A stretch of 64,000 bases of DNA, taken from NCBI RefSeq assembly GCF_964213995.1, contig NC_135825.1, positions 11,904,001 to 11,968,000 on the forward strand, written 5' to 3'. Positions 333 to 50,208 of this stretch are shown piece by piece; the first letter of the stretch is position 1, and each line of letters starts with the position of its first letter. The position numbers were made by a program, and so were the translations under genes. The stretch is from Mustelus asterias. Taxonomy: Eukaryota. Under the pieces are notes generated by a model. That model saw only the letters and a program-made list of their open reading frames with translations, was not told the DNA's origin and searched no databases.

Positions 333-650
333 CAATGCTGCTCTGTATCACATAACTGCAATTCCCAGTTGTATCGAAGACCAACACATTAACCATTTCA
401 CTGGATTTTTCTCCCTGGTTATTTGAGGCTGTGCAGTAATATTGATGATGTTGCTGTTTGAAGGATTGACAATGTAGATCCAGTTTATTGGTGTCAGAGA
501 TCTTTGAATCTTCAGGCGGGGTCTTTTCATACCATGTGTACTGAATGGGAAGTGATCCCTGGACAGACTCACAGGAGACGGACACTGAGCCCCCAGAACA
601 TGAGGCATTTGGTGGTGATAGAAATTTAAGTTCAGGAACAGACATTGGTT
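333..650 (-). CDS. Gene A exon 3: C2-type Ig domain (EPMSVPELKFLSPP...VSCESVQGSLPIQYTWY...YYCTASN...SSI); gene continues off the left edge
   Basis: Acceptor ttcttccccacag at 651, donor G|GTAAGT at 332; 318 nt, phase 1-1; C..W..YxC Ig core; paralogous to exons at 22.4, 24.9 and 27.7 kb. Confidence 0.9.
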
Positions 651-2245: not shown

Positions 2246-2916
2246 TGAAAAAACAAGCTGCCAGACTCTGCACTGCAGTGGATCCTCGGGATACCGGAGC
2301 TGTCAATGTTTCCTTCCAGAGAAAACCATGGCCTGAATTTTTCGCTCATCATGTGTGTGCACTCAGCGAGTCTGGACGCGGGTACGAAACCTCAGCCCCG
2401 AAGCGCAGTTCCACACTGGCTGTCCAATGAATGGGGGAAGAGCCACTGTGGAGCTGTCTCAGGGAGCTGTTGACCTGTGAAAAATATCAATGTTAAAACG
2501 ATACCGCGAGTGTCAGGGCAGCACGATCACACACACAGCTCAGGCCCCAGACACATTTCTTACTTTAATATGAACCCTGACCTTTCATTCCGCCCTGGAT
2601 CGAGGTTGCAGCTAAAATGTAAAGGTCACCTGGCCAATTGGCCCACCCGCCAACTGTAAAGGCAGACGGGCAACTTAAAGTCCTGGACAATTGGTGTTTA
2701 ATGAATTTAAATTGACTTTTGCATGGCTGGCAGCCGCACTTCCGACTTGCGCATGTGCCTGGCGACTGAAATATTGAGAGAAGGCATATTGCCGTCGGGG
2801 TGTGATTTTACCCACATTCGGGTAGGGCACACGCCTGATCTTTATACATAAAATTCTGGCCATTGATCAGAGATTTCAGTCAAGAGTAATAAAGATAATC
2901 ACTGAGAATAACGCAC

Positions 2917-3228
2917 CGTTAGATATTTGTAGGTTTACGTTATACAATGGATCGAGACCGGATGCTTCAATTCCACAGCTGTACCATCCTGCATCTCCTG
3001 AGCGAAGATCCTTCATGGTGACAACAAATACTCTTCGTGACTTGTTATCTGTGACTGAAATTCTTCCATTTTGCCAATTTGTCTTTGCTACAACATCACA
3101 TTGGCGATTCCAGCCGCGACACCAATATTTCACGTGTGACCGGTACCACACACCATAGTGACAATCGATTGTGATCGATCTTCCCACAATTCCTCTCACT
3201 TCCTCTTTTGCCCACAATGCACCTGAAA
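2917..3228 (-). CDS. Gene A exon 2: CD300/pIgR-like V-type Ig domain
   Basis: Acceptor ctcctcag|TTTCAG, donor G|GTGCGT; 312 nt, phase 1-1; ITIDC..KYWC-x6-C..DAGWYSCG with the extra C-C' cysteine pair typical of CD300/pIgR/TREM V domains. Confidence 0.92.
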
Positions 3229-4183
3229 CTGAGGAGACAACATTTCAGGAATTGAACAGGGAATAATTGCTTCATTCAAACAGACCCATTCTAATGAGTT
3301 AAATTCCATGCAGCTTGTGATGAAAATAAACATTAATATAGACATTTATCACAGTCTCAGAGTGTCAAAAGCATTTCTGTCAATTATTAATTTAAAAAAA
3401 TATTTGATGTATTTTCCTGAACCAATGACAGGGGCTGGGGGAGCAGGGATGGGGGGCGGGGGGGCCTGGAAATTGGGGTTCTGCCTCACATTGTGGGCCT
3501 TCACTCCAGAGTGTGATTGTGAGACATCCTCAAGAGGTTTCAGACCCAGAAACAAACCTAATTGACGGGTCCAACTTGCAGTTAGTTGGGGAGCAGCCCG
3601 GAGGAGATGACAGGAGCAAAGAGGTCCTTGATCTGACCTGAGAGGTGGTGTAGGCAGTAGGGATGGGATGTGACTCACACATTAAATCCTGGCAGGAGGG
3701 GGGTTTTCAGATCTTGGGTGGGTTTGGGATTTCAGGAGGTGAAGATTGCCGACCTTGGTGATGGTGCACGGGATTGGTGGCCTTGGAGGATGGCCGGAGG
3801 TCTTAGGTAACAATTTAGATGCCTGCTGAGAAGGAGACTGGAAACCTGGGGAGGTTTGGATGACTTAGGGGAAATGGAGGCCTGGGTTTGGGCCATGGGT
3901 GGCCTGGGGGGACATGAGACCCCTTGGAAGGATGGCAATGGAACGACGGGTGTATGGACAATTTGAAAGCATGTTTTGTTGGAGGTGATGCAGATTTCAT
4001 GGGGCGGTCAGGTGACAAATTGTAATGATTGGGGCGGTGAATGAGTTTGCATCAAGTGGGAGTTGGGCAGTGTAACAAATCTGCAGAGGCAGAAGTCCCT
4101 TCACCAAAATCCCTTTATTTACAATTCCAACAGCAGTACACAGGGTGCTTTCTGTCAGCAGTCTACCTTCGGGAGTGCCAGAG

Positions 4184-7100
4184 TGATGCGCGATTAAATC
4201 ACTCGGGAGGCTAGATTGTACCTGGGAAATAAAGGCTTCTATTACTGACAAGAATGGAGCACACTATACACAATACAATCCCAGACTAAAGGGTCACCAG
4301 GCAGTGCAGTGACCTTTATACTTCCCCTGGTAGGCGAAGCCAACTGGAGTGTACCACAGAACAATATCAACAGGTAGAACAGTCCAACCCTAACCCCAAC
4401 AGTAACTACAGTAACATATCTACAAACACCCATAGTGCTGACCATCCATGGCTCAGCACTCATAGTGGTAACCAACTATGGTTCACCACATTCACCCCTC
4501 CTTTAAAACAAAGGCCGGCGGGGCTAAAAAAAACAGAACAACTGTTCATATATTCACAAGTTCAGTCGTATTGGAGGACCGCACCGTCTCTGCGACCTCC
4601 TCAACACTGGCGGTAACGTCGGTTCTGGTAACCGTGGTGACCTTCTCTCCAAGGCGGTGTCCAGTGACTCCTCCAGTTCCTCACGGACAGGTGGACCACG
4701 AGGTGGCGACAATCTGCTGGACTCGAGCACGCCTCGAGGTGGTGACAATCTCCTGGACTCAGGCAAGCTGTACACGGGAGTAAGAGGATTAAGTGGTGGT
4801 CCCGATACTGCCCGCGCCGTGTCAGGAGGGGAGATAAGGGTCGGGTGGTCCCTAACTAGGGGTGTGGAAGCGACTGGGGTTTCCAAGTCCCCTGCAGGCG
4901 CCAGATCTCTAATAGAGACCGTGTCTTCTCGCCCGTCAGGATATGCCACATAGGCATATTGAGGGTTGGCGTGGAGGAGATGGACCTGTTCAACCAAAGG
5001 GTCGGACTTGCGGGTCCTAACATGCCGCCGCAGGAGGACAGGTCCTGAGTGCGTCAACCAAGACGGTAATGAGGTCCCAGAGGAAGACTTCCTAGGGAAG
5101 GAAAACATCCTCTCATGTGGAGTAGCGTTGGTTGCCGTACACAGGAGTGAGCGGATAGAATGGAGCGCATCAGAGAGTACCTCTTGCCAACGGGAGACTG
5201 GAAGACCTTTACACCTCAATGCCAGTAAGACAGCCTTCCAGACTGTAGCATTTTCTCGTTCAACCTGTCCGTTACCCCTAGGGTTGTAACTCGTAGTTCT
5301 ATTTGAGGCAATCCCTTTTGAGAGCAGGTATTGCCTCAAGTCGTCACTCATGAATGACGAGCCCCTATCACTGTGGACATAGCTGGGGTAACCGAACAGG
5401 GTGAAAAGATCCCGTAATGCTTTGATAACCGTGGCAGTGGTCGTATCAGAACAGGGAATGACAAAAGGGAATCGTGAGTACTCGTCAATCACATTGAGGA
5501 AGTACACGTTCCGATCTGTCGAAGGAAGGGGGCCCTTGAAGTCCACACTCAGTCTTTCGAAAGGGCGTGTGGCTTTAATGAGGTGTGCCCTGTCAGGTCG
5601 GTAGAAGTGCGGTTTGCATTCAGCACATACCTGGCAGCTTCGGGTTATTGACCTGACATCCTCCACTGAGTAGGGTAGATTCCGGGCCTTTACGAAATGG
5701 AAGAGCCGAGTGACCTCCGGATGGCAGAGATCATTGCGGAGGGCCTGTAATCGATTCTCCTGCACACTTGCACATGTTGCACGCGACAGGGCATCTGAGG
5801 GCTCATTGAGTTTCCCTGGACGGTACATGATATCATAATTGTAGGTGGAGAGTTCGATTCTCCACCTCAAGATTTTATCATTTTTGATCTTACCCCATAA
5901 CGTGTTGTTGAATATGAACGCCACGGACCGCTGGTCCGTGAGCAAGGTGAATCGTTTTCCCGCCAAGTAATGGCGCCAATACCGAACGGCCTCCACAATG
6001 GCCTGAGCCTCTTTTTCCACTGCAGAGTGCCGAATTTCGGGGCCTTGGAGGGTGCGAGAGAAAAAAGCGACGGGCCTGCCCGCCTGGTTAAGTGTGGCGG
6101 CCAGGGCGAAATCAGATGCATCACTCTCCACCTGAAAGGGGATGGACTCATCAACGGCGTGCATCGTGGCTTTCGCAATGTCGGCTTTTATCCCTTCAAA
6201 AGCTAAGCGAGCCTCTGTTGCTAGGGGAAAGGAGGTAGACTTGATGAGCGGACGGGCTTTGTCTGCATAATTGGGAACCCACTGTGCATAGTATGAGAAG
6301 AAGCCTAAGCATCTTCTCAGTGCTTTGATGCTAGTGGGCAGGGGAAGTTCCAGGAGGGGACGCATACGGTCTGGATCAGGGCCAAGGACCCCGTTTTCCA
6401 CCACGTATCCGAAAATTGCTAGGCGGCGCTTGCGAAATACGCACTTCTCCCTGTTGTAGGTCAGATTCAGGCGAGACGCAGTGCGTAAAAATCTAAGGAG
6501 GTTGGCATCGTGGTCCTGCTGGTCATGGCCGCAGATAGTGACATTATCCAGGTACGGGAAGGTAGCCCGCAGCCCGTTCTGGTCCACCATTCAGCCCATT
6601 GCATGCTGGAAGACCGAGACCCCATTCGTGACGCCAAAGGGAACCCTTAAAAAGTGATAAAGACAACCATCCGTCTCAAAGGCCGTGTATTTTTGGTCCT
6701 CTGGATGAATGGGGAGCTGGTGGTAAGCTGACTTCAAGTCAATGGTGGAGAACACCCGGTACTGCGCAATCTGGTTGACCATGTCAGATATGCGCGGGAG
6801 AGGATACGCATCCAGCTGCGTATATCTATTAATGGTCTGACTATAGTCTATGACCATCCAGGGTTTGTTTCCAGTTTTAACCACCACTACTTGCGCTGTC
6901 CATGGACTAGAGCTAGGTTGGATGATCCCTTCCCTGAGGAGCCGCTGAACTTCAGATCGAATAAAGATCCGATCCTCAGCGCTGTAACACCTGCTCTTGG
7001 TTGCGATGGGCTTGCAGCCTGGCACAAGATTCTCGAATAAAGATGGTGGGGTGATTCTGAGTGTCGAGAGGCTACACGTGGAGCGCGCTGGGCAATTTGG

Positions 7101-8115
7101 AGGCTGCTGTGCTTCCACTGAAAGTGGAGGGAGTGGTCCATTGTACTGCAGGGTTACACGCCTCAGGTGGACCATAAAGTCTAGTCCCAGGAGCATCGGA
7201 GCGCAAAGGTGCGGTAACGCAAGGAGCCTGAAGTTCTCGTAAACTGTGCCCCGCACCGTTAGGTTGACCACGCAGCTCCCTAGCACGGTAACAGACCGGG
7301 ACCTCGACGCCATCGAAATTGTCTGTCTGACAGTCCGTACTCGGAGACCGCACCGTTTCACGGTGTCAGGGTGAATGAAGCTCTCCGTGCTCCCGCTGTC
7401 AAACAAACAATGAATTTGGCGTCCATTTACCTCTATGCCCATCATGGACTTGTCGAGTCTGTGAGGCTTGGCCTGGTCCAGGATGATTGACGCCACCATT
7501 GGGTCTTGGGTGCCACTGCAGGCAGCTGAGATGGTTGATGATGATGACCCCTGCTGGTCGTCCGCAGTCGGTGCCGACCAAAATGGCTGCGCCCATGGAT
7601 CGCACGTGGTCGGTGGCGCTAAAAGTGGCGGCCCCTGCAGGTCGCACATGTCTTGCATCTCCGTCGTCAGGAATGGCGGCGCTCTGGAATCGCACATGGT
7701 GGAAGACCTCGAAGACGCTGGAGACAAGGAGGCAGGCTCAGGAGAATCACACGCCGCACTGCTATGTTTGGAGAGTGATTTGGTCCTGCAGACTTTGGCA
7801 TAATGCCCTTTCTTTCCACACGCGGAGCACAATAGCGTTCTAGCTGGACATCGCTGCCGAGGGTGTTTCGCCAATCCACAGAAGTAACACCGTGGGCCTC
7901 CTGGAGCTGCCGCCGTCGTCAGGTCCGAGGTTGGAAACACAATCGTGCAGTTTTTCGGAGCCTCTGGGTAGAGTTGAGTCGGTGGCTGTACTTGCCACGA
8001 TGTTCCCACGTGGTCGGTGGGGTACGTTTCTAGACTTCTGGAGACTGTCTCCATAGCGTCGGCCAATTCTACTGTCTTAGCGAGGTCTAGATTACCTTGC
8101 TCTAGCAGCCGTGGT
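4184..8115 (-). mobile_element. Ty3/Gypsy LTR retrotransposon, 5'-truncated (gag Zn-knuckles, PR, RT, RNase H, IN, PPT, 3' LTR 4184-4490)
   Basis: CCHC knuckles, LFDSGS protease, RT, RNase H (SDASD), IN (HPE..CQVC, DFKG, HSDRG, E); PPT at ~4491-4505; one nonsense codon at 6591-6593; lies in gene A intron 1. Confidence 0.95.
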
Positions 8116-8330: not shown

Positions 8331-8790
8331 ATGCCCATCAAACGTTTACTAAAGTTGTTCAAAGAACTGAGGAGATTAAAAGGGACATTAAACTTATCAA
8401 AGTCATCAACTAGTGGGATGATTAATGAAGCAGGGGTACAAATATGCACCTCCATTCATGGATTTGTCTCATGTTACCTGTCCAGTGAGACGTGACCTGA
8501 TACTTTCTGTGTTGACCAAATAAGGATCGTTGTTTGGATGGGTGCAAGATAGACCAGAGCCGCTGATTACTGCCTTACACCATATATGGTGAAGCTACGT
8601 GATTTACACGCAACTTGGTATTAACATTTGGGAGTTATTTATGAGTAACACCATTGGCTCTCACTGAACATTGTGATTAGTTCCCAGTGGTATCATTGGT
8701 TGAGTGTCAGAGAATTTTCTGGAAGGATGTGCAAAGTTTGAGATAAAAAGAGGAACTTTGAGTCATTTCCTCAGCAGAAACTCAAAAATG
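8331..8790 (+). mobile_element. ERV remnant (env 3' end plus LTR piece), paralogous to ~47110-47810
   Basis: TFTKVVQRTEEIKRD matches TFSKVVQRTKEIKRD; LTR segment matches the LTRs at 42.4 and 47.6 kb. Confidence 0.75.
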
Positions 8791-9128: not shown

Positions 9129-10109
9129 GAGGTTCAGAGAAGATGGGACTGGGAGATTGACATTGCTTTCTAGAAAATAGATCGATTGTAAATGGTGGAG
9201 AGTTGATAATGTTGATCAAAAACTCCATTGCAGTGTAGTATTAGATAATGTTAAAATGGGCAGGAGTGAAAAGTGAAACCTAGTTTAATAAAGTTAATGA
9301 ATTGAAAGAAAAAGAGTGGGAACATGAATATGAACCAATTGTCTACTATAGAGAAACATTGTCTCTGACAGAATCTCATGAAATCATTATCATCAACTGT
9401 ATGTGAAACAACAGAAACAGTTGCAAACGAGAGCCATGTTCTGTTTGTAGGATTATTATCACTGCAGTTTTCAGATTGTATTGCACAACAGATAACATTT
9501 CAGTTACCAATTAAAAACAGCTTCTATTTTTAAAATGATGCTTCCGAGATTTTAAAAAATTAAATTATCCTTAATTTCCCATCCACAATTAATAATGCAG
9601 TTTACTTTATTTGGTGAATGTATGCATGTTGTGCTAATACACAAACGAGGAGATACAATGCATCATAAATATTATTCATTTATATTTGCTAAGTATTTTG
9701 TGCCATTCGACTCAAGAGACTTCCCAAATCTAGAGATACATGAGGCAGACAAAGCAAATGTGTGTGTCTGTTTCCAATAGCTTGTCCTTCCTGAACCTGG
9801 TCACAAGCCTGAAGTCAGAGACTATAGCATGAGGGACATCACTCCACATCAAGACATTGCTGTCTGAGTATCTCTCCCTCTTACCGCCTGCCTTCAGCGC
9901 GTTGGTGCAATTTGCAACCTTGTTAGAATCCACCTTCCATTCCCATCAAGAGCAGGAGCGGGTCTAGAACCTGGAACTTCTGGCTTATGTACAGAGACTC
10001 TACTCACTGCAACACAAAACCGCCTTCTGCGTCGTTACACATCTCCAAATATTTAAACGTCTCTGCCGTATAACCTGTGGACTAGAGTTAAACTAACACT
10101 GTTACTCAC

Positions 10110-10146
10110 CGGGCAGAGAGCAAATGAGGAGAATCAAAATCCACAT
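10110..10146 (-). CDS. Gene A exon 1: signal peptide MWILILLICSLP(V)
   Basis: ATG plus 37-nt hydrophobic exon ending G|GTGAGT (phase 1); joins the V exon to give MWILILLICSLPVSGALW. Confidence 0.88.
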
Positions 10147-10262
10147 CGTTGCGTTGGAGATCAGATCAGTGTTTGTCGTCAGTCCCCCAGCTCCTGTGTC
10201 TCACGCTGAAATAGGTTTTGAATATAAGTTGTCGAAGGAATTTAAAAAGGGGAAGAAGACAG

Positions 10263-10270
10263 CAGGAAGT
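10263..10270 (+). promoter_or_regulatory. ETS/PU.1-type site CAGGAAGT about 120 bp upstream of the gene A ATG (also at 49357-49364 and 50324-50331)
   Basis: Motif kept at the equivalent position in all three leader-exon promoters, including the divergent one. Confidence 0.45.
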
Positions 10271-10508
10271 TATGTCATGAAAGCTCAGTAATCCAGATGA
10301 TGAAATCTGGCCCGTAAGATCTTGAACTTCTGTTAGTCACCTCTAACAAAAGAACTACACCAGCTTGCATTGAAAGAATATAAAATTCTGAACAATAAAA
10401 CAATGTTAAAAAGTTAGAACAGATGGACAATAATGAACAAGCTAATTATTTCCAATGAATTAGGAGGCAAGTTAGAGCCACCCCCCTCCTATTGAGATTG
10501 AATCTCTG

Positions 10509-17349: not shown

Positions 17350-17379
17350 TCAACTTTGAGAATCGGGTTCATTGAGTGG
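17350..17379 (-). CDS. Gene B likely terminal coding exon: PLNEPDSQS*
   Basis: Strong acceptor ttttctttttcag, phase 0 matching the TM exon donor; gives a short tail without tyrosine motifs. Confidence 0.5.
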   Translation of the reverse strand, partial: PLNEPDSQS

Positions 17380-17948
17380 CTGAAAAAGAAAATCATCAGA
17401 TTCGTTGAGACTGGGAGAACAATGCATCAATTGACATTTCAGATTTGAACAGAATTCTGGAAGTGGCAGCAGATTGAGGCAAAGCTTGGGGCAGTTTTGA
17501 GATCACATTGATCACCCATTCCTGGGAAGAACTGTCATTTGTATCCCTCATGAAGACATGTAACATGACTTTCTCATGGGTAACTGATGTTTCCCTGTGG
17601 CTGTGATTAATTCTCTGCCAATAATAATGAAGACCTGTGCTCCAGAACTTGCCGCACCTCGAGGCAAGCTGTTCCAGTACAGCTACAACACTGGCATCTA
17701 CCCGGCAATGTGGAAAATTGCTCAGGTAGGTCTCCATAAAAAGGAGGACAAATCCAACCTGGCCAATTATTGCCCCATCAGTCTAATCTCAATAATCAGT
17801 AAAGTGATGGAAGAAGTTATCAACAGCGCCAGCAAGAGGCATTTGCTCAGCAATAACCTGCTCTTGGATACTCAGTTTGGGTTCAGCCAGGGTCACTCAG
17901 TTCCTGACTCCATTACAGCCTTGGTTAAAACATGGACAAGAGCTGAAT

Positions 17949-19787: not shown

Positions 19788-19887
19788 CTGAGATTTTCTC
19801 GTGTACCATGTGACCGAAATAACACAAATCACCAGGAGGGTAAAGAGCCCCCAGCGAATCACATTCCAGATGAAGGAACAGAGCAAA
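19788..19887 (-). CDS. Gene B transmembrane exon: (C)LLCSFIWNVIRWGLFTLLVICVISVTWYTRKSQ
   Basis: Acceptor tatttcttccag, donor CAG|GTGAGG; 100 nt, phase 2 to 0; hydrophobic helix followed by basic stop-transfer RK; phase 2 matches the donor at 22111. Confidence 0.85.
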
Positions 19888-22111: not shown

Positions 22112-22460
22112 CACTCGCTTTCCGTCCTTGCCACATCAACACTGTTGATCTGTGTCACACAACTGCAATTCTCCCGTGATCTGTGGATCACTGACACTGT
22201 AACCGTTTCACTGGACTTTTCTCCCTGGTGATTTGAGGCTGTGCAGTAATATTGATGATGTTGCTGTGTGAAGGATTGACAATGTAGATCCAGTTTATTG
22301 GTGTCAGAGATCTTTGAATCTTCAGGCGGGGTCTTTTCATACCATGTGTACTGAATGGGAAGTGATCCCTGGACAGACTCACAGGAGACGGACACTGAGC
22401 CCCCAGAACATGAGGCATTTGGTGGTGATAGAAATCTAAGTTCAGGAACAGACACGGGTT
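22112..22460 (-). CDS. Gene B Ig domain 6 (C2, membrane-proximal)
   Basis: Acceptor ttcctttctacag, donor TG|GTAAGA; 349 nt, phase 1 to 2. Confidence 0.85.
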
Positions 22461-23248
22461 CTGTAGAAAGGAACAATCATTGAGATACAGATTGAATAAC
22501 CAAAAAATTAAATACTTTCATGTCACCAATATTTCTACATCTCATCCAGAGTATGAGGAGGAAGGGAGAGTGTTAGCGAGAGAGAGAGAGAGAGCTGGCA
22601 GTGGGAACTTGGCCGATTGCGAGTAGTATCTATTGATTGCTGTCTGGGATTTAATTGTGAGTACTGTTTAACACTATAACTGCAAGTACTGATTGAAGTC
22701 TAAATCTCATCCAAAGGGCATGAGCTGGGAGATAGAAGCTATCCGCTGGCAGCAACTGGAATAGTTAATTGGGGAAACTGGCCTTTTTGTACCGAGTCCC
22801 TTTGTTTATGAACATATAAATTCAGACATTCTCAGTGCAACCAGAACTGGAGTCTGCCTTCAACCGAGTGTGGAGGTTTAATGAGCTGAAGGAATTTACT
22901 ACAGGGGAAGAAGTGAGCTGTTGGTGAGTATCTGGTGAGTATCCGGGAAGTGGTCAAGGTCGATTGTCCAAGCATCGGGAGCAAGGGTGGGGTCCTTGCC
23001 AACTTGTTAACCAGGAGAGCAGGTTCCAAGGTGCAATAAATCTGACGCCATCTCTCTGGATCATTACTCTGGGCCTCTGAATTACAATTCCTCCAACATG
23101 ATCATTGTTCTAACTGCCCTCTCGCTGCCAGACTCTGCACTGCTGCGGAACCTCAGGATATCGGAGCTGTCAATGTCTCCTCCCAGATAAAGCACTGATC
23201 AGACATTTCAGTCGAGAGTAATAAAGATAATCACTGAGAACTATGTAC

Positions 23249-23557
23249 CGTCAGATATTTGTAGCTTGACAGGAAATATTGAAAGGAGGCCGGGCTTATC
23301 AATACCACAGCTGTACCATCCTGCATCTCCTGAGCGAAGATCCTCCATAGTAACAACAAATAATCCTGGTGTCTTGTTATCTGTGATCGACATTCTCCCT
23401 CGCCGTCCATCTGGATCGTCTGATTTTACCAAACCAGAGCACTGACGACTCCAAGATTTCACATGTGACTGGGACAATTTGTCATAGTGACAATCTATAG
23501 TGATCGATCTTCCCAAAACTCCTGTTACTTTATTTTTTGCCCACAATACACTTGGAG
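23249..23557 (-). CDS. Gene B Ig domain 5 (V, lacks the first C-C' cysteine)
   Basis: Acceptor gtcttttcag, donor G|GTACAT; 309 nt, phase 1-1; open frame. Confidence 0.88.
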
Positions 23558-24643
23558 CTGAAAAGACAACAGGTCAAAAACTGAAGTGAAAATAATTGCT
23601 TAATACAAACAGATATATTTCAATAGGATTTACCACTGTGTTCAGAGAAATCTCTCCAGTACATCTTCCAATGCAATTGGATACTTCCTTGTCTGAGATG
23701 TTAGAAACATTAATATAATGGCTGGAATTTTCCAGAAAGAGGCAAGTCGTCAGGTTAGGACTGAAAATTGATGAGTTTCTCTCCAGAAAGACAGCCAGCT
23801 TTTCCCACCAGACCTCCTGACTTTGTCAAAAAAATCAGGGGGAGTGGTTTGTGCTGTCACTTTGTCAGGACGGGGCCTGATTGAGCTGGCAAGGCCGTCT
23901 CCATAGAGATTGGGCACCATTTTTAAAGTTGATATTAAAGTTCCGTTGAAGAACCCTCCCCCCGCACCCCAATGCCCACAGACACCAGGAACCTCAGTGG
24001 ACAAGGAGAAAACCCCTCACCTAGAGGGTAAATCTCCCCTCAACGTCCCACCACTCAAAGATCAGTGTTCTTCAACTACACCATGCAAACATTAGGGTAA
24101 CCCTACACCAGCCTCTCTCCGCCAGCATCATGGCATTCCCACTCCCACCCTCTCAGCAACGACGACCAACCACCCCACCATTCACAGTCTCCACCCCAAT
24201 GCATACACGGCCTCCCCACCCCCTCACAGCCCACAGGCATCAGGCCCCACCCCATGGACATCAGGACCCCCAGTAGACAAGGGGAACAGTATTCCAAAAC
24301 ATATCTGAGGAATTCTCCCCAGTCCTGGGGAAAGCTTATCTCTCAAACAGCAATTGTCAGACAGCAGATTGTCTGCTCATGATCACATTGCTCCTTGAGG
24401 GAGCTTATTGCTCACAAATTGGTGCTGAGCTTCCTACATCACAACAATGGCTCTGAATCAGTTCCAGCATTGACCAGAACGGACTTTAAAACTGTCCTGA
24501 AGTTGTGAAAAGTGCAAAATAAATGCAATTCTATTTTTATTCCAATTGCTTAAAACGAAGGAATGAACTAAACCCGTGAGCAATTCGGACTGACATTAAT
24601 TTAAAAATTAGTTGTAGTTTTTGAAGCTTAAAGTGATATTTAC

Positions 24644-24967
24644 CAATGCTGCTGATTTGTGTTAAATAACTGCAGTCATTCTCTGAAATGTGGATCACTG
24701 ACACCGTAACCATTTCACTGGATTTTTCTCCCTGGTGATTTGAGGCTGTGCAGTAATATTGATGATGTTGCTGTGTGAAGGATTGACAATGTAGATCCAG
24801 TTTATTGGTGTCAGAGATCTTTGAATCTTCAGACGGGGCCTTTTCATACCATGTGTACTGAATGGGAAGTGATCCCTGGACAGACTCACAGGAGACGGAC
24901 ACTGAGCCCCCAGAACATGAGGCATTTGGTGGTGATAGAAATCTAAGTTCAGGAACAGACACGGGTT
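24644..24967 (-). CDS. Gene B Ig domain 4 (C2)
   Basis: Acceptor ttcctttctacag, donor G|GTAAAT; 324 nt, phase 1-1. Confidence 0.88.
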
Positions 24968-25755
24968 CTGTAGAAAGGAACAATCATTTAGATACAGATT
25001 GAATAACCAAAAAATTAAATATTTTCATGTTACCAATATATCATCCAGAGTATGAGGAGGAAGGGAGAGTGTTAGAGAGAGAGAGAGAGAGCTGGCAGTG
25101 GGAACTTGGCCGATTGCGGGTAGTATCTATTGATTGCTGTCTGGGATTTAATTGTGAGTACTGTTTAACACTTTAACTGCAAGTACTGATTGAAGTCTAA
25201 ATCTCATCCAAAGGGCATGAGCTGGGAGATAGAAGCTTTCCGCTGGCAGCAACTGGAATAGTTAATTGGACAAACTGGCTTGAACTGGTCTTTTTGTACC
25301 GAGTCCCTTTGTTTTTGAACATATAAATTCAGACATTCTCAGTGCAACCAGCACTGGAGTCTGCCTTCAACCGAGTGTGGAGGTTTAATGAGCTGAAGGA
25401 ATTTACTGCAGGGGAAGAAGTGAGCTGTTGGTGAGTATCTGGTGAGTATCCGGGAAGTGGTCAAGGTCTATTTTCCAGCCATCGGGAGCATGGGTGGGGT
25501 CCTTGCCAACTTGTTAACCAGGAGAATGGGGTCCAAGGTGCAATAAATCTGACCCCATCTCTCTGGATCATTACTCTGGGCCTCTGAATTACAATTCCTC
25601 CAACATAATCATTGTGCTAACTGCCCTCTCGCTGCAAGACTCTGCACTGCTGCGGAGCCTCGGGATATCGGAGCTGTCAATGTCTCCTCCCTGATAAAGC
25701 ACCGATCAGACATTTCAGTCGAGAGGAATAAAAATAATCACTGAGAACAATGTAC

Positions 25756-26064
25756 CGTCAGATATTTGTAGCTTTACAGGAAATATTGAAAGGGAGCCGT
25801 GCTGATCAATACCACAGCTGTACCATCCTGCATCTCCTGTGCGAAGATCCTCCATAGTAACAACAAATAATCCTTGTGTCTTGTTATCTGTGATCGAAAT
25901 TCTCCCTCGCCGTCCATCTGGATCGTCTGATTTTACCAAAACAGAGCACTGACGACTCCAATATTTCACATGTGACTGGGACAATTTGTCATAGTGACAA
26001 TCTATAGTGATCGATCTTCCCAAAACTCCTGTTACTTTATTTTGTGCCCACAATGCACTTGGAG
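25756..26064 (-). CDS. Gene B Ig domain 3 (V, lacks the first C-C' cysteine)
   Basis: Acceptor gtcttttcag, donor G|GTACAT; 309 nt, phase 1-1. Confidence 0.88.
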
Positions 26065-26535
26065 CTGAAAAGACAACAGGTCAAAAACTGAACTGAAAAT
26101 AATTGCTTAATACAAACAGATATATTTCAATAGGAATTTTCACTGTGTTCGGAGAAATCTCCCCAATACATCTTCTAATGCAATTGAATACCTCCTTGTT
26201 TGAGATGTTGGGAACATTAATATAATGAGTGGACTTTTCCAGAAAAATTTCAAATTGTCAGGTTGGGACTGAAAACCGGTGACTTTCCAGAAAGACAGCC
26301 AGGTTTTCCCACCAGATCCCCTGACATTTTCCCCAAAAAATCAGGGGGCGTGGTTTGTGCTGTCGCTTTGGCAGGACGGGGCCTGATTGAGCTGGCAAGG
26401 CCGTCTCCATAGAGATTGGGCACCATTTTTAAAGTTGATATTAAAGTTCCGTTGAAGAACCCTCCCCCTGCACCCCAATGCCCACAGACATCAGGAACCT
26501 CAGTGGACAAGGAGAAAACCCCTCACCTAGAGGGT

Positions 26536-26775
26536 TGATGCATTATCAATACCCAGAGACGGAATCTGGAATAATAGGCTTTTATTAACAATAAAAGGGA
26601 ACTAACTCTACAGGAAACTCTAACCGAGGGACCGGACCAGAATGAGGCGAAGGGGAGGAGCAGCCACCTTTATACCCCAGTGAACAGGGGAGGAGCCTCA
26701 GGCAGCACCGGTAGGGGTGTGTCCAGTCATCAGAACATAACAGTGGTTATCAGAACATAACAGTGGTTTACCACA
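26536..26775 (-). mobile_element. Gypsy solo LTR, 240 bp
   Basis: Plus-strand termini tgatg...accaca as in the LTRs at 4184 and 30652; 5-bp TSD agggt; empty site in the duplicate at ~24025. Confidence 0.9.
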
Positions 26776-27393
26776 AGGGTCAATCTCCCCTCAACGTCCC
26801 ACCACTCAAAGATCAGTGTTCTTCACCTCCACCATGCAAGCATTAGGGTAACCCTACACCAGCCTCTCTCTGCCAGCATCATGGCATTCCCACTCCCACC
26901 CTCTCAGCAACGACGATCAACCCCCCCACCATTCACAGTCTCCACCCCAATGCATACACGACCTCCCCACCCCCTCACAGCCCACAGGCATCAGGCCCCA
27001 CCCCGTGGACATCGGGACCCACAGTTGACAAGGGAACAGTATTCCAAAAAATATCTGAGGAATTCTCCCCAGTCCTGGGGAAAGCTTATCTCTCAAACAG
27101 CAATTGTCAGACAGCAGATTGTCTGCTCAGGGTCACATTGCTCTTTGAGGGAGCTTATTGCTCAAAGATTGGTGCTGAGCTTCCTACATCACAACAATGG
27201 CTCTGAATCAGTTCCAGCATTGACCAGAACTGACTGTAAAACTGTCCTTAAGTTGTGAAAAGTGCAAAATAAATGCAATTCTATTTTTATTAAAATTGCT
27301 TAGAACGACACAATGAACTAAACCCGTGAGCAATTCAGACAGACATTAATTAAAAAATTAGTTGTAGTTTTTGAAGCTTAAAGTGATATTTAC

Positions 27394-27717
27394 CAATGTT
27401 GCTGATTTGTGTTAAGTAACTGCAGTCATTCTCTGAAATGTGGATCACTGACACTGTAACCATTTCACTGTATTTTTCTCCCTGGTGATTTGAGGCTGTG
27501 CAGTAATATTGATGATGTTGCTGTGTGAAGGATTGACAATGTAGATCCAGTTTATTGGTGTCAGAGATCTTTGAAACTTCAGATGGGGTCTTTTCATACC
27601 ATGTGCACTGAAATGGAAGTGATCCCTGGACAGACTCACAGGAGACGGACACTGAGCCCCCAGAACATGAGGCATTTGGTGGTGATAGAAATCTAAGTTC
27701 AGGAACAGACACAGGTT
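27394..27717 (-). CDS. Gene B Ig domain 2 (C2)
   Basis: Acceptor ttcttccccacag, donor G|GTAAAT; 324 nt, phase 1-1. Confidence 0.88.
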
Positions 27718-29065: not shown

Positions 29066-30538
29066 CAGGGGCGTAGCCAGGTTCTAAAGTTAGGGGGAGC
29101 GAGCACATAAAAAAGGCGCCACGACGCATACCAAATAATTTTAAATTCATTATACATTTTTATTTTGTATTTAAAATCAAAGCATAATAAAAACACGAGT
29201 GTTATTTAATTATTTTACATTTTAAACGTAAAATGAAAACAAAATGAAGCAATATGAAAAAGATATGAAGCAACTACAGCAGCCTCTTTCGTCTCGGCTT
29301 CATTCGAGCAAAGTTATCTATTACTTTATTATAATCTACCTCAGTAGCCAACTGTCTTTCAATGGAGACCAAAGCTATCCCAGACAATCTATCCTCGCCC
29401 ATTGTAGAACGAAGGTAGGACTTTAAGTGTTGGAGCCGGCTAAAGGATCGTTCCACAACTGCGCTAGTTATTGGTAAGGTCAGAAAAATGTGCTACAATG
29501 TGGACAGGTTAGGATAAATGGAACACATGTCATTGGCGATCATGAATTTTAGTACATTGTTGATGGTCAGTTTCTCGACACGTGAATCTGCCTCACTGCC
29601 AGTGCTCATCATCTCTTTGAACATGTCTTTGAATGAAAGAAACTCTTGTACGATTTCAGTTTGACTGTCGATGACGTCTGAGTATGCGTCTGCTAAAAAT
29701 TCTAATTTGTTCACATTATCTGCGTGGTCAAAAAGCTTTGGATCTAAACCACTAAATTTGGAAGCCACATTTTTAAAATGCTCAAATCTTTTACTTGTGC
29801 TATTTATAACAGAATCTCAGGACACGAAGTAGGATTCAACTATGAAGCTCTTTCGGGCATCAAATATTCCTTCATCCTCTGCAATTTCTTCATGGAATCT
29901 TTTTCTTTTACGTTCTCTGTGCTGCTTGTCTTAACATCACATTTTCGAGCCAACTCGGTTGCTTCATTCTCAATCTGTTTGAATTGAGATTCATACTCAT
30001 TTTGCATGTTTTTCATATCTTTTTCAAAAAGCTGAATCAAATGAGAAGCCATTACCAGATCTAGACTACTTTTCTGTAAATATATGGATAAATTGAAAGC
30101 CTTGTCTAGCACTTTACTCCAGACTATAAGAAAAACTAAGAATTCGTATGTTGGACTCTGTAGCGGTTTAAATTCTTCAAGTGATAATCACCAAACCTAT
30201 TTACTCACCCAATCTCGGCTGGTGATGTCCGTCGGCGAGGGATGCTTGGTCTCGACTGCCCATTCGTCGCGGTGGCTGCATATTTATGTCCTTCGCAGCC
30301 TCTGCAATTATCCTCGTGATTGGATGCCCTCTTGGGAGATTGCACGCCTTCCGCGCTGCCTGAAGTCCCCACATCCGTATCGCATCCTACGATTGCAGTA
30401 CACGGATCGAGGACTTCAGATCTCAGGAAGAGATCTGAGGGGCCCGTGAGGAACACCCCATTGAAAAGGCGCCACTTTTGAAGAATGTGCTCAGGGGGAG
30501 CGATCACTCCCCCTGCTCCCCCTCTAGCTACGCCACTG
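29066..30538 (-). mobile_element. Internally deleted hAT DNA transposon (Tip100/ZMYM1-like transposase C-terminus)
   Basis: TIRs caggggcgtagccag / cagtggcgtagctag (13/15); perfect 8-bp TSD ttgtcatg; hAT dimerization motif ERSFSRL..LKSYLRSTMGEDRLSGIAL. Confidence 0.93.
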
Positions 30539-30651: not shown

Positions 30652-33600
30652 TGATGCACGTCAATCGAACTCAAGACACAAGGCTTCGGTAACTGAAGGC
30701 TTTTATTGCCTAACAATGGAACTACTAGAACGTAAGTACACCACCCCAGACTGACGAGGTCCCGCCCGAGCAGGGGGTCTTATACCTCTCCCAGGAGGCG
30801 GAGCCCGACTGGGATGTGCCACAACAGTAACAACCACAGGTGTATTAATCCCACCCTAGCCCAACAACAACATTAGAACAACCCCACAGTGGGAACCAAC
30901 GATGGTTCACCACATTCACCCCTCCTTTGAGAACAAAGGCCGGCGGGGTGCGAAAACAGACTAAAAAAAAGTCAACAGATTATAAGTCCAGACGGTCTGG
31001 AGGACCGCACCGTCGTTGTGACCTCCTCAATACCGGCGGTGACACCGGAGTAGGTGCTTGCGGTGGCGTTCTCTCCAAAACAGCGTCCGGCTGTCCTCTC
31101 GAGGACTCACAGGCTGGTTGACCCTGATGAAGCGGTAGTGCAGGGGATCCCGGTACATTCTGCGATGGCGCCGATCTCCGGGTCTCAGGCAAGCTGTACA
31201 GTGGAGTATAACTGTTATGCACTGGTCCCGGTGCTGACCGCGCCACGTCCGGGGGAGAAATAAGGGATAAGGGATTCGTCACTGGGGGTATAGGAGCGAC
31301 AGGAGTTGCTACGTCCCCTGCGGGCGCCAGGTCTCGGATCGAGACTGTCCTCTCGCCCGTCAGGATATGCCACATAGGCATACTGAGGGTTGGCGTGGAG
31401 GAGGTGGACCTGTTCGACCAAGGGGTCGGACTTGCGGGCCCTTACATATCGCCGCAGAAGGACGGGTCCTGGGTACGTCAACCAGGCTGGTAAAGATATC
31501 CCCGAGGACGACTTCCGAGGGAATGAGAACATCCTCTCGTGGGGAGTAGCATTGGTTGCCGTACACAGGAGGGAGCGAATGGAGTGAAGCGCATTTGGGA
31601 GGACCTCCTGCCAATGGGAGACTGGAAGGCCTTTGGACTTCAGCGCCAATAGGACAGCCTTCCAGACTGTAGCATTCTCTCTCTCCACCTGTCCGTTGCC
31701 CCGAGGGTTGTAACTCGTGGTCCTACTAGAGGCAATCCCGTATGAGAGCAGGAATTGCCTCAAGTCATTACTCATGAACGACGAGCCCCTGTCGCTATGT
31801 ATATAGCAGGGGTACCCGAACAGGGTAAAAAGATCACGGAATGCCTTGATCATCGTGGCAGTCGACGTGTCCGCGCAGGGGACAACAAACGGGAACCGGG
31901 AGTACTCGTCTATGATGTTAAGAAAGTACACGTTCCGATCTGTTGAGGGAAGGGGGCCCTTAAAATCCACACTCAGCCTCTCGAAGGGGCGAGTGGCCTT
32001 GACCAAATGTGCCCGGTCAGGTCGGTAAAAGTGCGGTTTGCATTCCGCGCAAATCCGACAGCTCCTTGTCACTGACCTGACGTCCTCCACCGAGTAAGGC
32101 AGGTTGCGGGCTTTGATAAAGTGGTAGAGCCGAGTGACCCCAGGATGGCACAGGTCATTATGGAGGGCGTTCAAGCGATCCTCCTGCATAGTAGCGCATG
32201 TTCCGCGCGAGAGGGCATCCGAGGGCTCATTGAGTTTCCCTGGACGATACATGATATCGTAATTATAGGTGGAGAGCTCAATTCTCCACCGCAAGATCTT
32301 GTCATTCTTGATCTTGCCCCTCTGCGTGTTGTTGAACATGAACGCCACGGACCGCTGGTCCGTGATCAGGGTGAACCGCTTCCCCGCCAGGTAATGGCGC
32401 CAGTGTCTGACGGCCTCCACAATGGCCTGGGCCTCCTTTTCCACCGCTGAATACCGAATTTCGGGACCTTGGAGGGTGCGGGAAAAAAAACGCGACGGGC
32501 CTGCCTGCCTGGTTTAGTGTGGCGGCCAGGGCGAAATCAGATGCATCGCTTTCCACCTGAAAAGGGATGGATTCGTCTACCGCGTGCATCGTGGCTTTTG
32601 CAATGTCGTGTTTCAATGCCTTGAAGGCCAATTGGGCCTCTGGCGTGAGTGGAAAAGTCGTGGACTTAATAAGCGGACGGGCTTTGTCCGCGTAGTTGGG
32701 GACCCACTGCGCATAATAGGAGAAGAAGCCTAGGCATCTCCTCAGTGCTTTTGCGCGAGTGGGCAAGGGAAGTTCAGCAAGGGGGCGCATACGGTCGGGA
32801 TCAGGGCCAATGACCCTGTTTTCCACTACGTATCCCAGGATGGCTAACCGGCGCGTACGGAATACACACTTCTCCCTGTTGTAGGTCAAATTCAGGCGAG
32901 ATGCAGTGCGTAAAAAGTTCTGGAGATTTGTGTCATGGTCCTGCTGATCACGGCCGCAGGTACGGGAAGGTAGCCCGCAGCCCGTTCTGGTCCACCATTC
33001 GGTCCATAGCACGCTGGAAGACCGAGACCCCATTGGTGACACCAAATGGAACCCTAAGAAACTGATACAGACGACCATCCGCCTCAAAAGCCGTGTAGTG
33101 TTGGTCCTCTGGGCGGATGGGGAGTTGGTGGTAGGCGGACTTAAGGTCTATGGTGGAGAACACCCGGTACTGCGCAATCTGATTGACCATATCAGATATG
33201 CGCGGGAGAGGATACGCATCGAGCTGCGTATATCGATTAATGGTCTGACTGTAATCAATGACCATCCGGGGTTTGTTCCCGCTCTTAACCACCACAACCT
33301 GTGCTCTCCACGGACTAACACTGGGCTGTATGATCCCTTCTTTGAGGAGCCGCTGAACTTCAGATCTGATGAAGATCCGATCTTCAGCGCTGTAACGCCT
33401 ACTTTTAGTAGCGATGGGCTTGCAGCCTGGTACCAGATTCTTGAATAAAGAGGGTGTGGTGATCTTTAATGTAGAAAGATTGCATGCGGGGCGCTTTGGA
33501 CAATTTGGAGACTGCAGCTGGTCCCCTACTGTCAGCGAAGGGAGTGGCCCACCGTACTGTAGGATCACACTCTTCATGTGGACCATAAAGTTTAGTCCGA

Positions 33601-34240
33601 GGAGAATTGGTGCGCAAAGATGCGGCAACACAAGGAGCCTGAATCGCTCGTAAATTGTGCCCTGCACTTTCAGAGTTACCACACAACGTCCTTGAACAGG
33701 GACAGACCAGGACCGTGATGCCATAGAGATTGTCTGTTTGGCAGGTTGAACCTGGAGTCCACACCTCTTTACAGTGTCAGGGTGAATAAAGCTCTCAGTG
33801 CTCCCGCTGTCAAACAGACAATAAATTGCACGACCATTTACCTTTATGTCCATCATTGAACAGTCAAGCCTGTGGTGCTTAGCCTGGTTCAGGGTGATCG
33901 ACGCCACCGTTGGCCCTTGAACGTCACTGCAGGCAGCTGAGGTCGATGCTGAGGACCCCTGCTGGTCGCTCCTGGTCGTCGTCGACCAAAATGGCCGCCC
34001 CCATGAATCGCACATGGTTGAGGGCGCCAAGCGTAGCGACTCCTTGTGGTCATCCTCCTCCGACTCCGTCGACCACAATGGCGTTGTCCTGGACTCGCAC
34101 GTGGACGAACCCCGTGGGTACTTCGACGTCGATGGTGATGATCCACGTTCTGAAGGGTCACAGGCTGCACTGCCGTTCTTGGGCTTTGATCTGCACACCT
34201 TTGCGTAGTGCCCCTTTTTACCGCATTGATTACAGACCAC
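30652..34240 (-). mobile_element. Second Ty3/Gypsy element of the same clade, 5'-truncated and frameshifted; 3' LTR 30652-30914
   Basis: PR-RT-RH-IN highly similar to the 4.5-8 kb copy; PPT next to the LTR; deletion of the RT active-site motif near 32960. Confidence 0.95.
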
Positions 34241-37110: not shown

Positions 37111-38451
37111 TTAATGTTAATCTGCAGTGGAGCAGCTGGAGTAGACCGGGGTGTGGTCTCCGCCATTCTCCGGATGGTGTGGCTGACCCTACGCTATCCC
37201 AATAATTCAGGTCTATGGATCCTGTTAAGTTCTGTGTATTTATTCTATTTTATTATATTCAAGGAATTTACACCATCAGTAGTGACGAGCTATTCAGTGT
37301 TTTAGAATCCCTATAGTGCAGAAAGAGGCCATTCGGCCCATCGAGTCTGCGTGAACTCTCCGAAAGAGCTTCCCACCCAGGCCCACCACCCTGCTCTATC
37401 TCTGTAACCCCACACTTTAACCATGACTAATCCCTCTAACCTACACATCTTGGGGCACTAAGAGGCAATTTAGCATGGCCGACCCACCTAACCGGCACAT
37501 CTTTGGGCTGTGGGAGGAAACCAGAGCACACGGAGGAAACCCATGCAGACACGAGGAGAAAGTGCAAACTCCACACAGTTGTCCAAGGCCGGAATTGAAC
37601 CAGGGTGCCTGGTGCTGTGAGACAGCAGCACCTACCACTGCGCCGCCCACAAATTAAGCACCCAACATGGGGCTTTTTGTCTTTTGTCTTTTAGTTTTAA
37701 TACGAAAGCAAACACCTGACAGTTTGACAAGTTGGAAAGAGCAGGAATTGGGTTTTGTGTGAGTCAGATTTCCCGACTTCTGCCCTCTAGCTGCCAGAGT
37801 CTGCACTGCAGTGGACCCTTGGGATACCGGAGCTGTCAATGTTTCCTCTCAGAGGAAAGCATGGCCTGAACTTTTTGCTCGTAGTGTGTGTGTGCACTCA
37901 GCGAGTCTGGACGTGGGTACGAAACCTCAGCCCCGAAGCGCAGTTCCACACTGGCTGTCCAATGAATGGGGGAAGAGCCACTGTGGAGCTGTCTCAGGGA
38001 GCTGTTGACCCGTGAAAAATATCAATGTTAAAACGATACCGCGAGTGTCAGGGCAGCACGATCACACACACAGCTCAGGCCCCAGACACATTTCTTACTT
38101 TAATATGAACCCTGACCTTTCATTCCGCCCTGGATCGAGGTTGCAGCTAAAATGTAAAGGTCACCTGGCCAATTGGCCCACCCGCCAACTGTAAAGGCAG
38201 ACGGGCAACTTAAAGTCCTGGACAATTGGTGTTTAATGAATTTAAATTGACTTTTGCATGGCTGGCAGCCGCACTTCCGACTTGCGCATGTGCCTGGCGA
38301 CTGAAATATTGAGAGAAGGCATATTGCCGTCGGGGTGTGATTTTACCCACATTCGGGTAGGGCACACGCCTGATTTTTATACATAAAATTCTGGCCATTG
38401 AGCAGAGATTTCAGTCAAAAGTAATAAAGATAATCACTGAGAATAACGCAC

Positions 38452-38763
38452 CGTTAGATATTTGTAGGTTTACGTTATACATTGGATCGAGAACGGATGT
38501 TTCAATTCCACAGCTGTACCATCCTGCATCTCCTGAGCGAAGATCCTTCATAGTGACAACAAATACTCCACGTGACTTGTTATCTGTGATTGATATTCTT
38601 CCATTTTGCTGATTTGTTGTTGCTACAACATCACATTGGCGAGTCGAGCCGCGACACCAATATTTCACGTGTGACCAGTACCACACACCATAGTGACAAT
38701 TGATTGTGATCGCTCTCCCCACAATTCCTCTCGCTTCCTTTTTTGCCCACAATGCACCTGAAA
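38452..38763 (-). CDS. Gene B Ig domain 1 (CD300/pIgR-like V)
   Basis: Same splice sites as 2917-3228; 312 nt, phase 1-1; four-cysteine V domain. Confidence 0.92.
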
Positions 38764-39880
38764 CTGAGGAGACAACATTTCAGGAATTGAACAGGGAATA
38801 ATTGCTTCATTCAAACACAGACATTCTAATGAGTTAAATTCCATGCAGCTTGTGATGAAAATAAACATTAATATAGACATTTATCACAGTCTCATGGTGT
38901 CCCAAAGCATTTCTCTCAAGGATTTATTATTTTAAATATTTGTTGTATTTTCCTGACCCACTGACAGGGGCTGGGGGAGCAGGGATGGGGGGCGGGGGGG
39001 CCTGGAAATTGGGATTCTGCCTCACATCGTGGGCCTTCACTCCAGAGTGTGATTGTGAGACATCATCAAGAGGTTTCAGACCCAGAAACAAACCTAATTG
39101 ACGGGTCCAACTTGCAGTTAGTTGGGGAGCAGCCCGGAGGACATGACAGGAGCAAAGAGGTCCTTGATCTGACCTGTGAGGTGGTGTAGGCAGTAGGGAT
39201 GGGATGTGACTCACACATTAAATCCTGGCAGGAGGGGGGTTTTCAGATCTTGGGTGGGTTTGGGATTTCAGGAGGTGAAGATTGCCGACCTCGGTGATGG
39301 TGCATGGGATTGGTGGCCTTGGAGGATGGCCGGAAGCCTTTGGTAGCAATTTACATGTCTGCCGAGGAGGAGGTTCTGATGACTCAGGGGAATTGTTTGT
39401 TTAATATTTATTTATTAGTGTCACAAGTGGGCTTACATTAACACGGCAATGAAGTTTCTGTGAAAATCCCCCAGTTGCCACACTCCGGCACGTGTTCGGG
39501 TACACTGGGGGAGAATTTAGCATGGCCAATGCACCTAACCAGCACGTCTTTCAGAATGTGGGAGGAAACTGAAGCACCCGGAGGAAACCCACGCAGACAC
39601 GGGGAGAATGTGCAGACTCTGCTCAGACAGTGATCCAAGCCGGGAATCGAACCCGGGTCCCTGGCGCTGTGAGTCAGCAGTGCTAATCGCCGTGCCACCG
39701 TGCTGCCCTTGGAGGCCTGCATTGGGCCACCGCTGATCTGGGGGGGTAATGAAACCACTTGGAAGGGTGGCAGTGGAATGAAGGGAGTGTGGATAGTTTG
39801 AAAGCAGGTTCTGTTGGGGCTGATGCAGATTTCATGGGGAGATCGGGTGCCAAATTGCAATGAAATCATTGCAAATTGCA

Positions 39881-49204: not shown

Positions 49205-49241
49205 CAGGCAGAGAGCAAATGAGGAGAATCAAAATCCACAT
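49205..49241 (-). CDS. Gene B leader exon, proximal copy (MWILILLICSLP)
   Basis: 37 nt, G|GTGAGT donor; nearly identical to 10110-10146. Confidence 0.82.
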
Positions 49242-49952
49242 CGTTGCGTTGGAGATCAGATCAGTGCTTGTCGTCAGTCACCCAGCTCCTGTGTCTCACG
49301 CTGAAATAAGTTTTGAATATAAGTTGTAGAAGGAATTTAAAAGGGGAAGAAGACAACAGGAAGTTATGTCATGAAAGCTCAGTAATCCAGATGATGAAAT
49401 CTGGCCCGTAAGATCTTGAACTTCTGTTAGTGTGAGATGGAGAGGGCTGGGAGGAGGCTCAAATGGAGCATAAGACCAGCATCGTGTAGGTGGGCTGAGT
49501 GGCATTTGCCTGCTGTAAATTCTCAGCAAATTCTGTATCATCCAGCTTTGGAAATGTCCAATTATTCATGTTGATATTTATTATCCTTACCAGGTTATCA
49601 TGCGGAGTCTTGTCTCTGCGATGACATAGAATGCCTATTGAGCCTGAAAAATGACAATATAACTTCTGGCTTGGTTACAGATTCCGGAATTTTCCAGCTG
49701 TTCACGTCCTGCCACCGCTGTCAGAGAGGATGGAGAATTTGGCGCTCAGACAAATCTCCATTCACTGCAGCAGGACAGAAGAATCCCGGCTGCAAGCGAG
49801 GTTGAAGAATCTGTCCCAGAGACTCTTCCCACTGTAACACAAAACCTCTTTCTGTGCCTTTATAATATTTAAACGTCTGTGCCGTATAAGCTATAGACTA
49901 GAGTTAAACTAAGACTGATTATCTGACTATCCAGCTCTGGCTATTACTCACC

Positions 49953-50171: not shown

Positions 50172-50208
50172 CGGGCAGAGAGCAAATGAGGAGAATCAAA
50201 ATCCACAT
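50172..50208 (-). CDS. Gene B leader exon, distal copy (MWILILLICSLP)
   Basis: 37 nt, intact ATG and G|GTGAGT donor. Confidence 0.7.

Follow-up and report, generated by a model that had tools for sequence, protein, structure and literature searches.

Ordinary divergence of a distal V exon beside a probably converted intron in two tandem shark CD300/pIgR-like receptor genes

The first V exon of a receptor gene of the shark Mustelus asterias differs from its tandem paralogue at many sites, whilst part of the adjoining intron is nearly identical between the two genes, which raises the question of whether it is the exon or the intron that has evolved unusually. The window analysed here is the whole stretch of 64,000 nucleotides (contig NC_135825.1, positions 11,904,001 to 11,968,000), and all positions below count from its first letter. 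A preliminary description of this DNA had compared two exons that it took to be membrane-distal, and that holds, each being the distal V exon of one of two tandem genes:

2917..3228, minus strand: V1, V-set exon of the CD300/pIgR-like gene B, first in order and membrane-distal (open reading frame, splice sites, Pfam V-set)
38452..38763, minus strand: V4, the first V exon of gene A, the paralogue compared with V1

Each exon is 312 nt long, lies on the minus strand, is bounded by AG/GT and is open; the block 2256-3836 is 95% identical to 37789-39372. Global alignment of the exons gives 20 substitutions in 312 nt (6.4%), the number estimated previously, comprising 5 synonymous steps (one more than had been counted) and 15 non-synonymous steps that yield 14 residue changes, including all those named before (R/W, WN/ST, K/T, W/Q and ASGLDPL/TSVLDPM). 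The intron at 2360-2910 differs from that of gene A at 5 of 551 nt (2379, 2476, 2840, 2867 and 2884), again as described. The exon is more diverged than this intron stretch (Fisher P=7e-6), which had been picked as the quietest part of a patchy block. The raw counts behind the proposal that the exon outpaces its flanking intron are correct; the baseline is not, as it is the quiet tract that is unusual and not the exon.

Two-state segmentation divides the block into five parts with 10/93, 5/597, 31/475, 5/330 and 10/81 differences, the middle three being:

2349..2946, no strand assigned: homogenised tract, 5/597 against gene A, which takes in the final 30 nt of the V exon; a putative gene-conversion tract (segmentation, permutation, outgroup)
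2947..3425, no strand assigned: unconverted segment, 31/475, holding most of the V exon and 197 bp of upstream intron (segmentation)
3426..3755, no strand assigned: another quiet tract, within the leader-to-V intron, with 5/330 (segmentation)

The 96 aligned bases immediately left of 2360-2910 carry 10 differences, as do the last 81 bases of the block, and the opposite flanking intron (3229-3836) carries 26 in 604, no different from the exon (P=0.20). On permuting the block's 61 substitutions, some 312-nt window reached at least 20 substitutions in 24% of 20,000 permutations, and the 363-nt identical run seen between the V1 and V4 blocks was reached in 0/20,000.

Homologous 5′ non-coding DNA of genes A and B differs at 27/358 and 45/556 sites, giving a background of 7.9% pooled over these two 5′ segments only. 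The exon (6.4%) lies at this background (P=0.46) and the tract 2353-2916 (0.9%) far below it (P=1e-10); since 5′ non-coding DNA differs by 7.9%, the intron tract is the outlier. Segments excluded as possible repeats or older homology were 8472-8789 (14.8%), 3875-4028 (17.1%) and 1803-1907 (14.4%), and the leader region 10060-10337 (2.2%) was also excluded, the shared background segments ranging from 2.2% (leader region) to 17%. Adding the three diverged in-block patches gives 8.0%, but this is circular. Both block ends and the 5′ flanks show 8-12% divergence, and pS between the gene B C exon and gene A's three C exons is 5.4-8.4%. Against all non-coding sites of the block the exon is higher (20/312 vs 41/1264, P=0.013), because that pool includes the quiet tracts. 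A second pair of V exons, V2 and V3, served as a control; there the exon (3.8%) does not rise above its introns (4.1% and 8.0%). CpG hypermutation was rejected as a cause of exon divergence, with CpG differences at 3/20 in the exon and 9/41 in non-coding DNA. The divergence of the V1/V4 exons is ordinary, at the non-coding background of the duplication, and faster exon evolution is unsupported for this pair.

Diversifying selection, one of the two causes suggested at the outset, finds no support in an exon that is at background divergence and has a dN/dS of 0.93, with non-synonymous changes at 15/236 (6.4%) and synonymous changes at 5/73 (6.8%; P=0.79). It could still be argued, from the contrast with the adjacent intron and from several radical changes in loops, that the true neutral divergence is ~1% and that positive selection has carried the exon beyond it. 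However, the neutral background is ~8%, and exon synonymous sites by themselves exceed the intron divergence (P=0.003); an excess that is as large at synonymous as at non-synonymous sites is not one that selection at the protein level explains, and we regard this account as highly improbable.

The loops of the domain give a weak hint of selection. With loops drawn by hand, non-synonymous changes fall at 9/63 loop sites vs 6/173 elsewhere (P=0.005), the comparison with exon synonymous sites giving P=0.13 and that with background P=0.055; with loops taken from the AlphaFold model the counts are 7/64 vs 8/172 (P=0.13; against background, P=0.23). The enrichment depends on the loop definition. The V2/V3 pair has 11 non-synonymous changes and 1 synonymous change (omega 3.5, P=0.18), the non-synonymous excess of both V pairs pooled has P=0.34, six C-exon pairs have omega 0.39-0.84, and loops are more variable across seven M. 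asterias V lineages (P=0.04). This pattern is compatible with framework constraint and free loops, and also with mild diversifying selection.

We consider it likely that the 6.4% of the exon is old divergence and that the near-identical intron reflects recent gene conversion between the tandem genes. The identity run of 363 nt is longer than chance would give, as conversion would leave it. Patchy gene conversion, the other cause originally put forward, is supported, but it homogenised the intron and did not act on the exon. Genes A and B, with a terminal inverted repeat (TIR) element already in the intron, would predate the split from a related organism, B; a later non-allelic conversion would have copied ~600 bp (2349-2946) between the genes, probably with a second conversion patch of 330 bp (3426-3755), and 2947-3425 would have been left untouched. 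One edge of the tract falls ~20 bp within the TIR element and the other 30 bp within the exon, and 197 bp of the upstream intron belong to the diverged segment; the tract edges disregard function.

Most of the quiet tract is a 532-bp TIR element, found in both genes:

2330..2861, no strand assigned: non-autonomous TIR element in the V-to-C intron of gene B, with 12-nt inverted ends and flanking AT
37863..38396, no strand assigned: the same TIR element in the V-to-C intron of gene A

The element is present at the same site in the V1 and V4 introns and absent from the V2/V3 introns, and its core attracts very many repeat contigs among the reads. ISL2EU DNA transposons, as described in PMC4482050, have TIRs, a transposase and AT target duplication at A-AT-T. 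The intron element has TIRs and flanking AT, in the context C-AT...AT-T and with AC at empty paralogous sites, and is too short for a transposase gene; its fit to the ISL2EU type appears partial. Two separate insertions of a young element, one per gene, were rejected as an explanation, as the site is the same, the element occurs in organism B and the quiet tract extends into the exon. Elsewhere in the window, LTR-retrotransposon-like copies at 4461-7699 and 30885-34104 are 80% identical, occupy non-equivalent gene positions and show integrase-like and CCHC motifs by eye, and an element at 29080-30530 resembles, also by eye, a hAT-like transposase C-terminal remnant.

The timing of the homogenisation was addressed with reads (6 of 22 listed runs compared), the outgroup count omitting runs X3, X4 and X6, which have thin or no tract cover. 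Over 2635-2942 an organism B contig differs from the V1 copy at 15/308 letters, vs 3/308 between V1 and V4 (P=0.007), although organism B's contigs are short and cannot be tied to one copy; of those 15 differences, 3 lie outside the listed sites and may be V4's bases. An organism B contig from a second study has 15 differences in 220 and 9 listed intron sites in common, and at the listed organism B difference sites in the tract V1 has the V4 base at 13/13. The conversion would be placed after the split, as organism B is farther from both copies than the copies are from each other. Organism B also has one contig across the V1-only segment 1708-2056 and a contig across the V4-type joint and TG insertion, the latter with 27 letters on its short side, below the 31-letter threshold. 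Orthology of the organism B flanks is uncertain because its contig of the V1-type flank stands well apart from V1, with 31 differences and 16 gaps in 341. Its exon contigs differ from V1 at 7/106, 10/112, 10/117 and 6/72 sites, approximately V4's distance, and assigning them to either gene is impossible. Both genes probably predate the split from organism B, with the tract homogenised afterwards.

A quiet intron tract could also result from constraint, or from the collapse of two copies during assembly. A divergence of only 0.9% would fit constraint, and a regulatory element is conceivable, but the tract is mostly a TIR element that is ~5% from organism B. As for collapse, run X1 yields a single contig (2603-2902) at depth 88 vs 41-47 for copy-specific flanks, hence one contig at twice the flank depth and not two diverged ones; the twofold depth argues against an assembly artefact, bearing in mind that depth is not copy number and that X1 may be the assembly's own sample. 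We give constraint or collapse very little credence. None of the X1 contigs listed there shows the V1 bases at 3017, 3055 and 3059, which could be allelic or have dropped out when contigs were built; no other M. asterias copy has the Val58 of V1.

V1 matches Pfam V-set and is 100% identical to part of the M. asterias protein P0001. Of 82 candidates in a protein search with V1, 30 were hits, every one of them from a shark or a ray, and the closest solved sequences are pIgR and CD300lf. The AlphaFold model of V1, built from 31 sequences (an 11-sequence run with pLDDT 48 was discarded), has a pLDDT of 94 and a TM-score of 0.94 to CD300lf. Cysteines C22, C36, C43 and C84 of V1 and V4 align with pIgR cysteines, the second disulfide being putative; for CD300C two disulfides are described in PMC12447643. 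After the C-strand Trp, V2 and V3 are four residues short; the C36 equivalent is among those missing and the C43 equivalent is kept, and the C36-less form also occurs in Stegostoma and Rhincodon proteins. With a modelled V-set fold and best matches to CD300 and pIgR, V1 is a CD300/pIgR/TREM-like V domain.

Four V exons and four C-type exons lie in the window. Besides V1 and V4, the two genes comprise:

10110..10146, minus strand: leader coding exon of gene B, MWILILLICSLP
333..650, minus strand: C-type Ig exon belonging to gene B, which continues past the window start
49205..49241, minus strand: predicted leader coding exon of gene A, with a second leader-like exon at ~50172-50208
27394-27717, minus strand: gene A C exon, splicing predicted, phases compatible
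25756-26064, minus strand: gene A V2, splicing predicted, phases compatible
24644-24967, minus strand: gene A C exon, splicing predicted, phases compatible
23249-23557, minus strand: gene A V3, splicing predicted, phases compatible
22112-22460, minus strand: last gene A C exon, with a short extension, splicing predicted, phases compatible
19788..19887, minus strand: gene A transmembrane exon with Arg (IWNVIRWGLF...), predicted activating type
~17350-17380, minus strand: gene A short tail exon

The gene A ectodomain beyond V4 spans 22112..27717 (minus strand), and the order of the gene is leader, V4, C, V2, C, V3, C, transmembrane exon and short tail; that of gene B is leader, V1 and C, continuing beyond the window. 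By tblastn, gene A has no separate stalk exon. Its last C exon lacks the usual donor, and a 25-nt extension (22112-22137) terminates at a phase-2 donor compatible with the transmembrane exon, suggesting a direct C-to-transmembrane splice. The missing donor looks as if most of a stalk exon had been deleted, and the last C domain of P0006 has the same INSVD junction end. A transmembrane Arg with a short tail is a mark of activating receptors, and on these features both genes are predicted to be activating-type, the tail of gene B being known via P0001 only. P0001 spans 49241-333 (minus strand) with the second leader at 10146 inside the model, skips the intact-looking C exon 27394-27717 and the gene A transmembrane exon, and probably fuses genes A and B. 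The NCBI labels for the shark genes are 'pIgR-like' or 'FcRL5'.

The tail exons of an upstream receptor of tyrosine-motif, inhibitory type lie at 63147-60625 (minus strand); its tail stops after TYATL, where P0029 also ends but P0003 and P0008 continue. Between the two leader-like exons, at 49594-49644, lies a stray fragment of a cytoplasmic exon, 88% identical to P0008.

The position of V1 among other copies was examined with 86 V domains cut from 30 proteins, 19 of which entered a tree. The nearest relative of V1 is a domain at residue 763 of P0001 (V1′), one residue apart, and the tree pairs the two with support of 95/90; a V1+V4 clade is rejected (AU p=0.03), a V1+V1′+V4 clade is not (p=0.17). 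V1′ seems to have arisen by duplication within the gene that carries V1. Grouping of the V exon with a third paralogue, a possibility raised from the start, is seen in the V1/V1′ pairing, but the likely same-gene origin of V1′ and the retained three-member clade limit its bearing on V4. The neighbouring models P0003 and P0006 have near-identical V-C-V-C units, three repeats each, which indicates that recent amplification or homogenisation within genes is frequent in this cluster.

Such copies might reverse the argument, with the whole block a recent duplicate (~1% apart) whose exon and neighbouring patches were overwritten from third paralogues. V1 is one residue from a third V domain and 12 from the third V of P0008, vs 14 from V4; at 7/14 changed positions six other M. 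asterias V domains between them show both states, and 52/171 informative site pairs are incompatible. This incompatibility is, however, without distance dependence (a PHI-like amino-acid recombination test was negative, P=0.47) and homoplasy can explain it. The V1+V1′+V4 clade survives, the block ends and 5′ flanks are 8-12% apart, and organism B appears to carry both flank types, all of which count against overwriting, and we think it unlikely. Shuffling of V domains among paralogues is plausible from the sequences, and some exchange with third copies may well have occurred on top of intron conversion.

The V domain aside, these genes are not true pIgR, as their ectodomain alternates V and C-type exons. 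The ectodomain of true pIgR is all-V, and the receptor binds and transports polymeric Ig. Among seven M. asterias proteins, Arg-transmembrane short-tail forms (P0001, P0007, gene A) occur alongside tyrosine-motif tails (P0003, P0008, P0029), their activating or inhibitory signalling being predicted from sequence. By structure these are CD300/pIgR-family paired receptors, with function predicted, and we know of no ligand for the family. The skate MDIRs are said, in work of Cannon et al. from 2006, to combine V and C2 domains in a modular way; the shark genes carry V-C repeats that may be comparable. In clearnose skate, the MDIRs form a cartilaginous-fish multigene CD300/pIgR-like family, as set out in PMC3031540. 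As described there, they share with the shark genes a V domain with a second Cys pair (C36/C43) and short-tail and tyrosine-motif-tail forms side by side, whereas the shark genes are long (V-C)n repeats. No MDIR-named protein is among the 30 V1 hits, ray and skate relatives being labelled otherwise; by description, the shark genes appear to fit skate MDIRs best.

A literature search, thin on subscription journals, found no paper devoted to this shark cluster, but converted introns beside diverged exons are on record. For bovine CEACAM32 and CEACAM1, PMC7042247 places conversion in the leader and in the intron that follows the ligand-binding Ig exon, whose own sequence stays divergent; 23 GENECONV events over five genes support exon exclusion there. 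The likeness is that the intron beside a ligand-binding Ig exon appears converted and the exon still diverged; the shark case differs in being one pair with a non-significant selection signal. For the divergence peak at red/green opsin exon 5, the review PMC3924837 presents the model of Teshima and Innan; there introns are nearer between paralogues than between species and the exon is not, a contrast that the shark pair appears to share. The shark peak is not exon-specific, unlike that of the opsins, because non-coding patches are as diverged as the exon. Between primate CD300A and CD300C, one of them inhibitory and one activating, it is the Ig domain that conversion homogenises, as reported in PMC12447643; fold family and conversion between neighbour genes are common to both cases, whereas the shark V stays diverged and both shark genes look activating-type. 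The conversion mosaic is real but ordinary, its pattern already known.

These precedents bear on a possible addition, and not an alternative, to intron conversion, namely that selection removes conversion tracts that enter the V exon and so keeps distinct ligand-binding faces, producing a divergence peak. The opsin and CEACAM32 cases would be its models (PMC3924837 and PMC7042247), and the exon does lie between two quiet tracts. Sites in the diverged state number 282/312 in the exon vs 367/1264 in non-coding DNA, an excess that selection against conversion would also give. The hand-drawn loop excess (P=0.005; vs background, P=0.055), the V2/V3 omega of 3.5 vs 0.39-0.84 for C-exon pairs and the loop variability across lineages (P=0.04) point the same way, but model-defined loops give P=0.13 (0.23 vs background), the V2/V3 excess has P=0.18 and both pairs pooled P=0.34, framework constraint alone gives a loop excess, and three non-coding stretches of the block have escaped conversion to the same degree. 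A single gene pair counts as one observation, and it cannot decide on selection because the unconverted segment enters the intron for 197 bp and two other patches are equally diverged. We regard this addition as possible but less likely than not.

Were it correct, and we are doubtful, two activating-type genes would keep exchanging intron DNA whilst tracts entering the distal V are purged and a difference from before the split is kept. The candidate determinants of ligand specificity would then, with the same reserve, be residues of the CC′ and FG loops, W39/N40 vs S/T, and A88 and G90 vs T and V.

For the cluster itself, the finding is a caution that an intron beside an exon is no neutral clock where genes convert one another, and that the public model P0001 probably joins two receptor genes. 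If purging of conversion tracts proved true over many pairs, selection would point to the ligand-binding residues of shark innate receptors, and the CEACAM32/opsin pattern would extend to cartilaginous fish.
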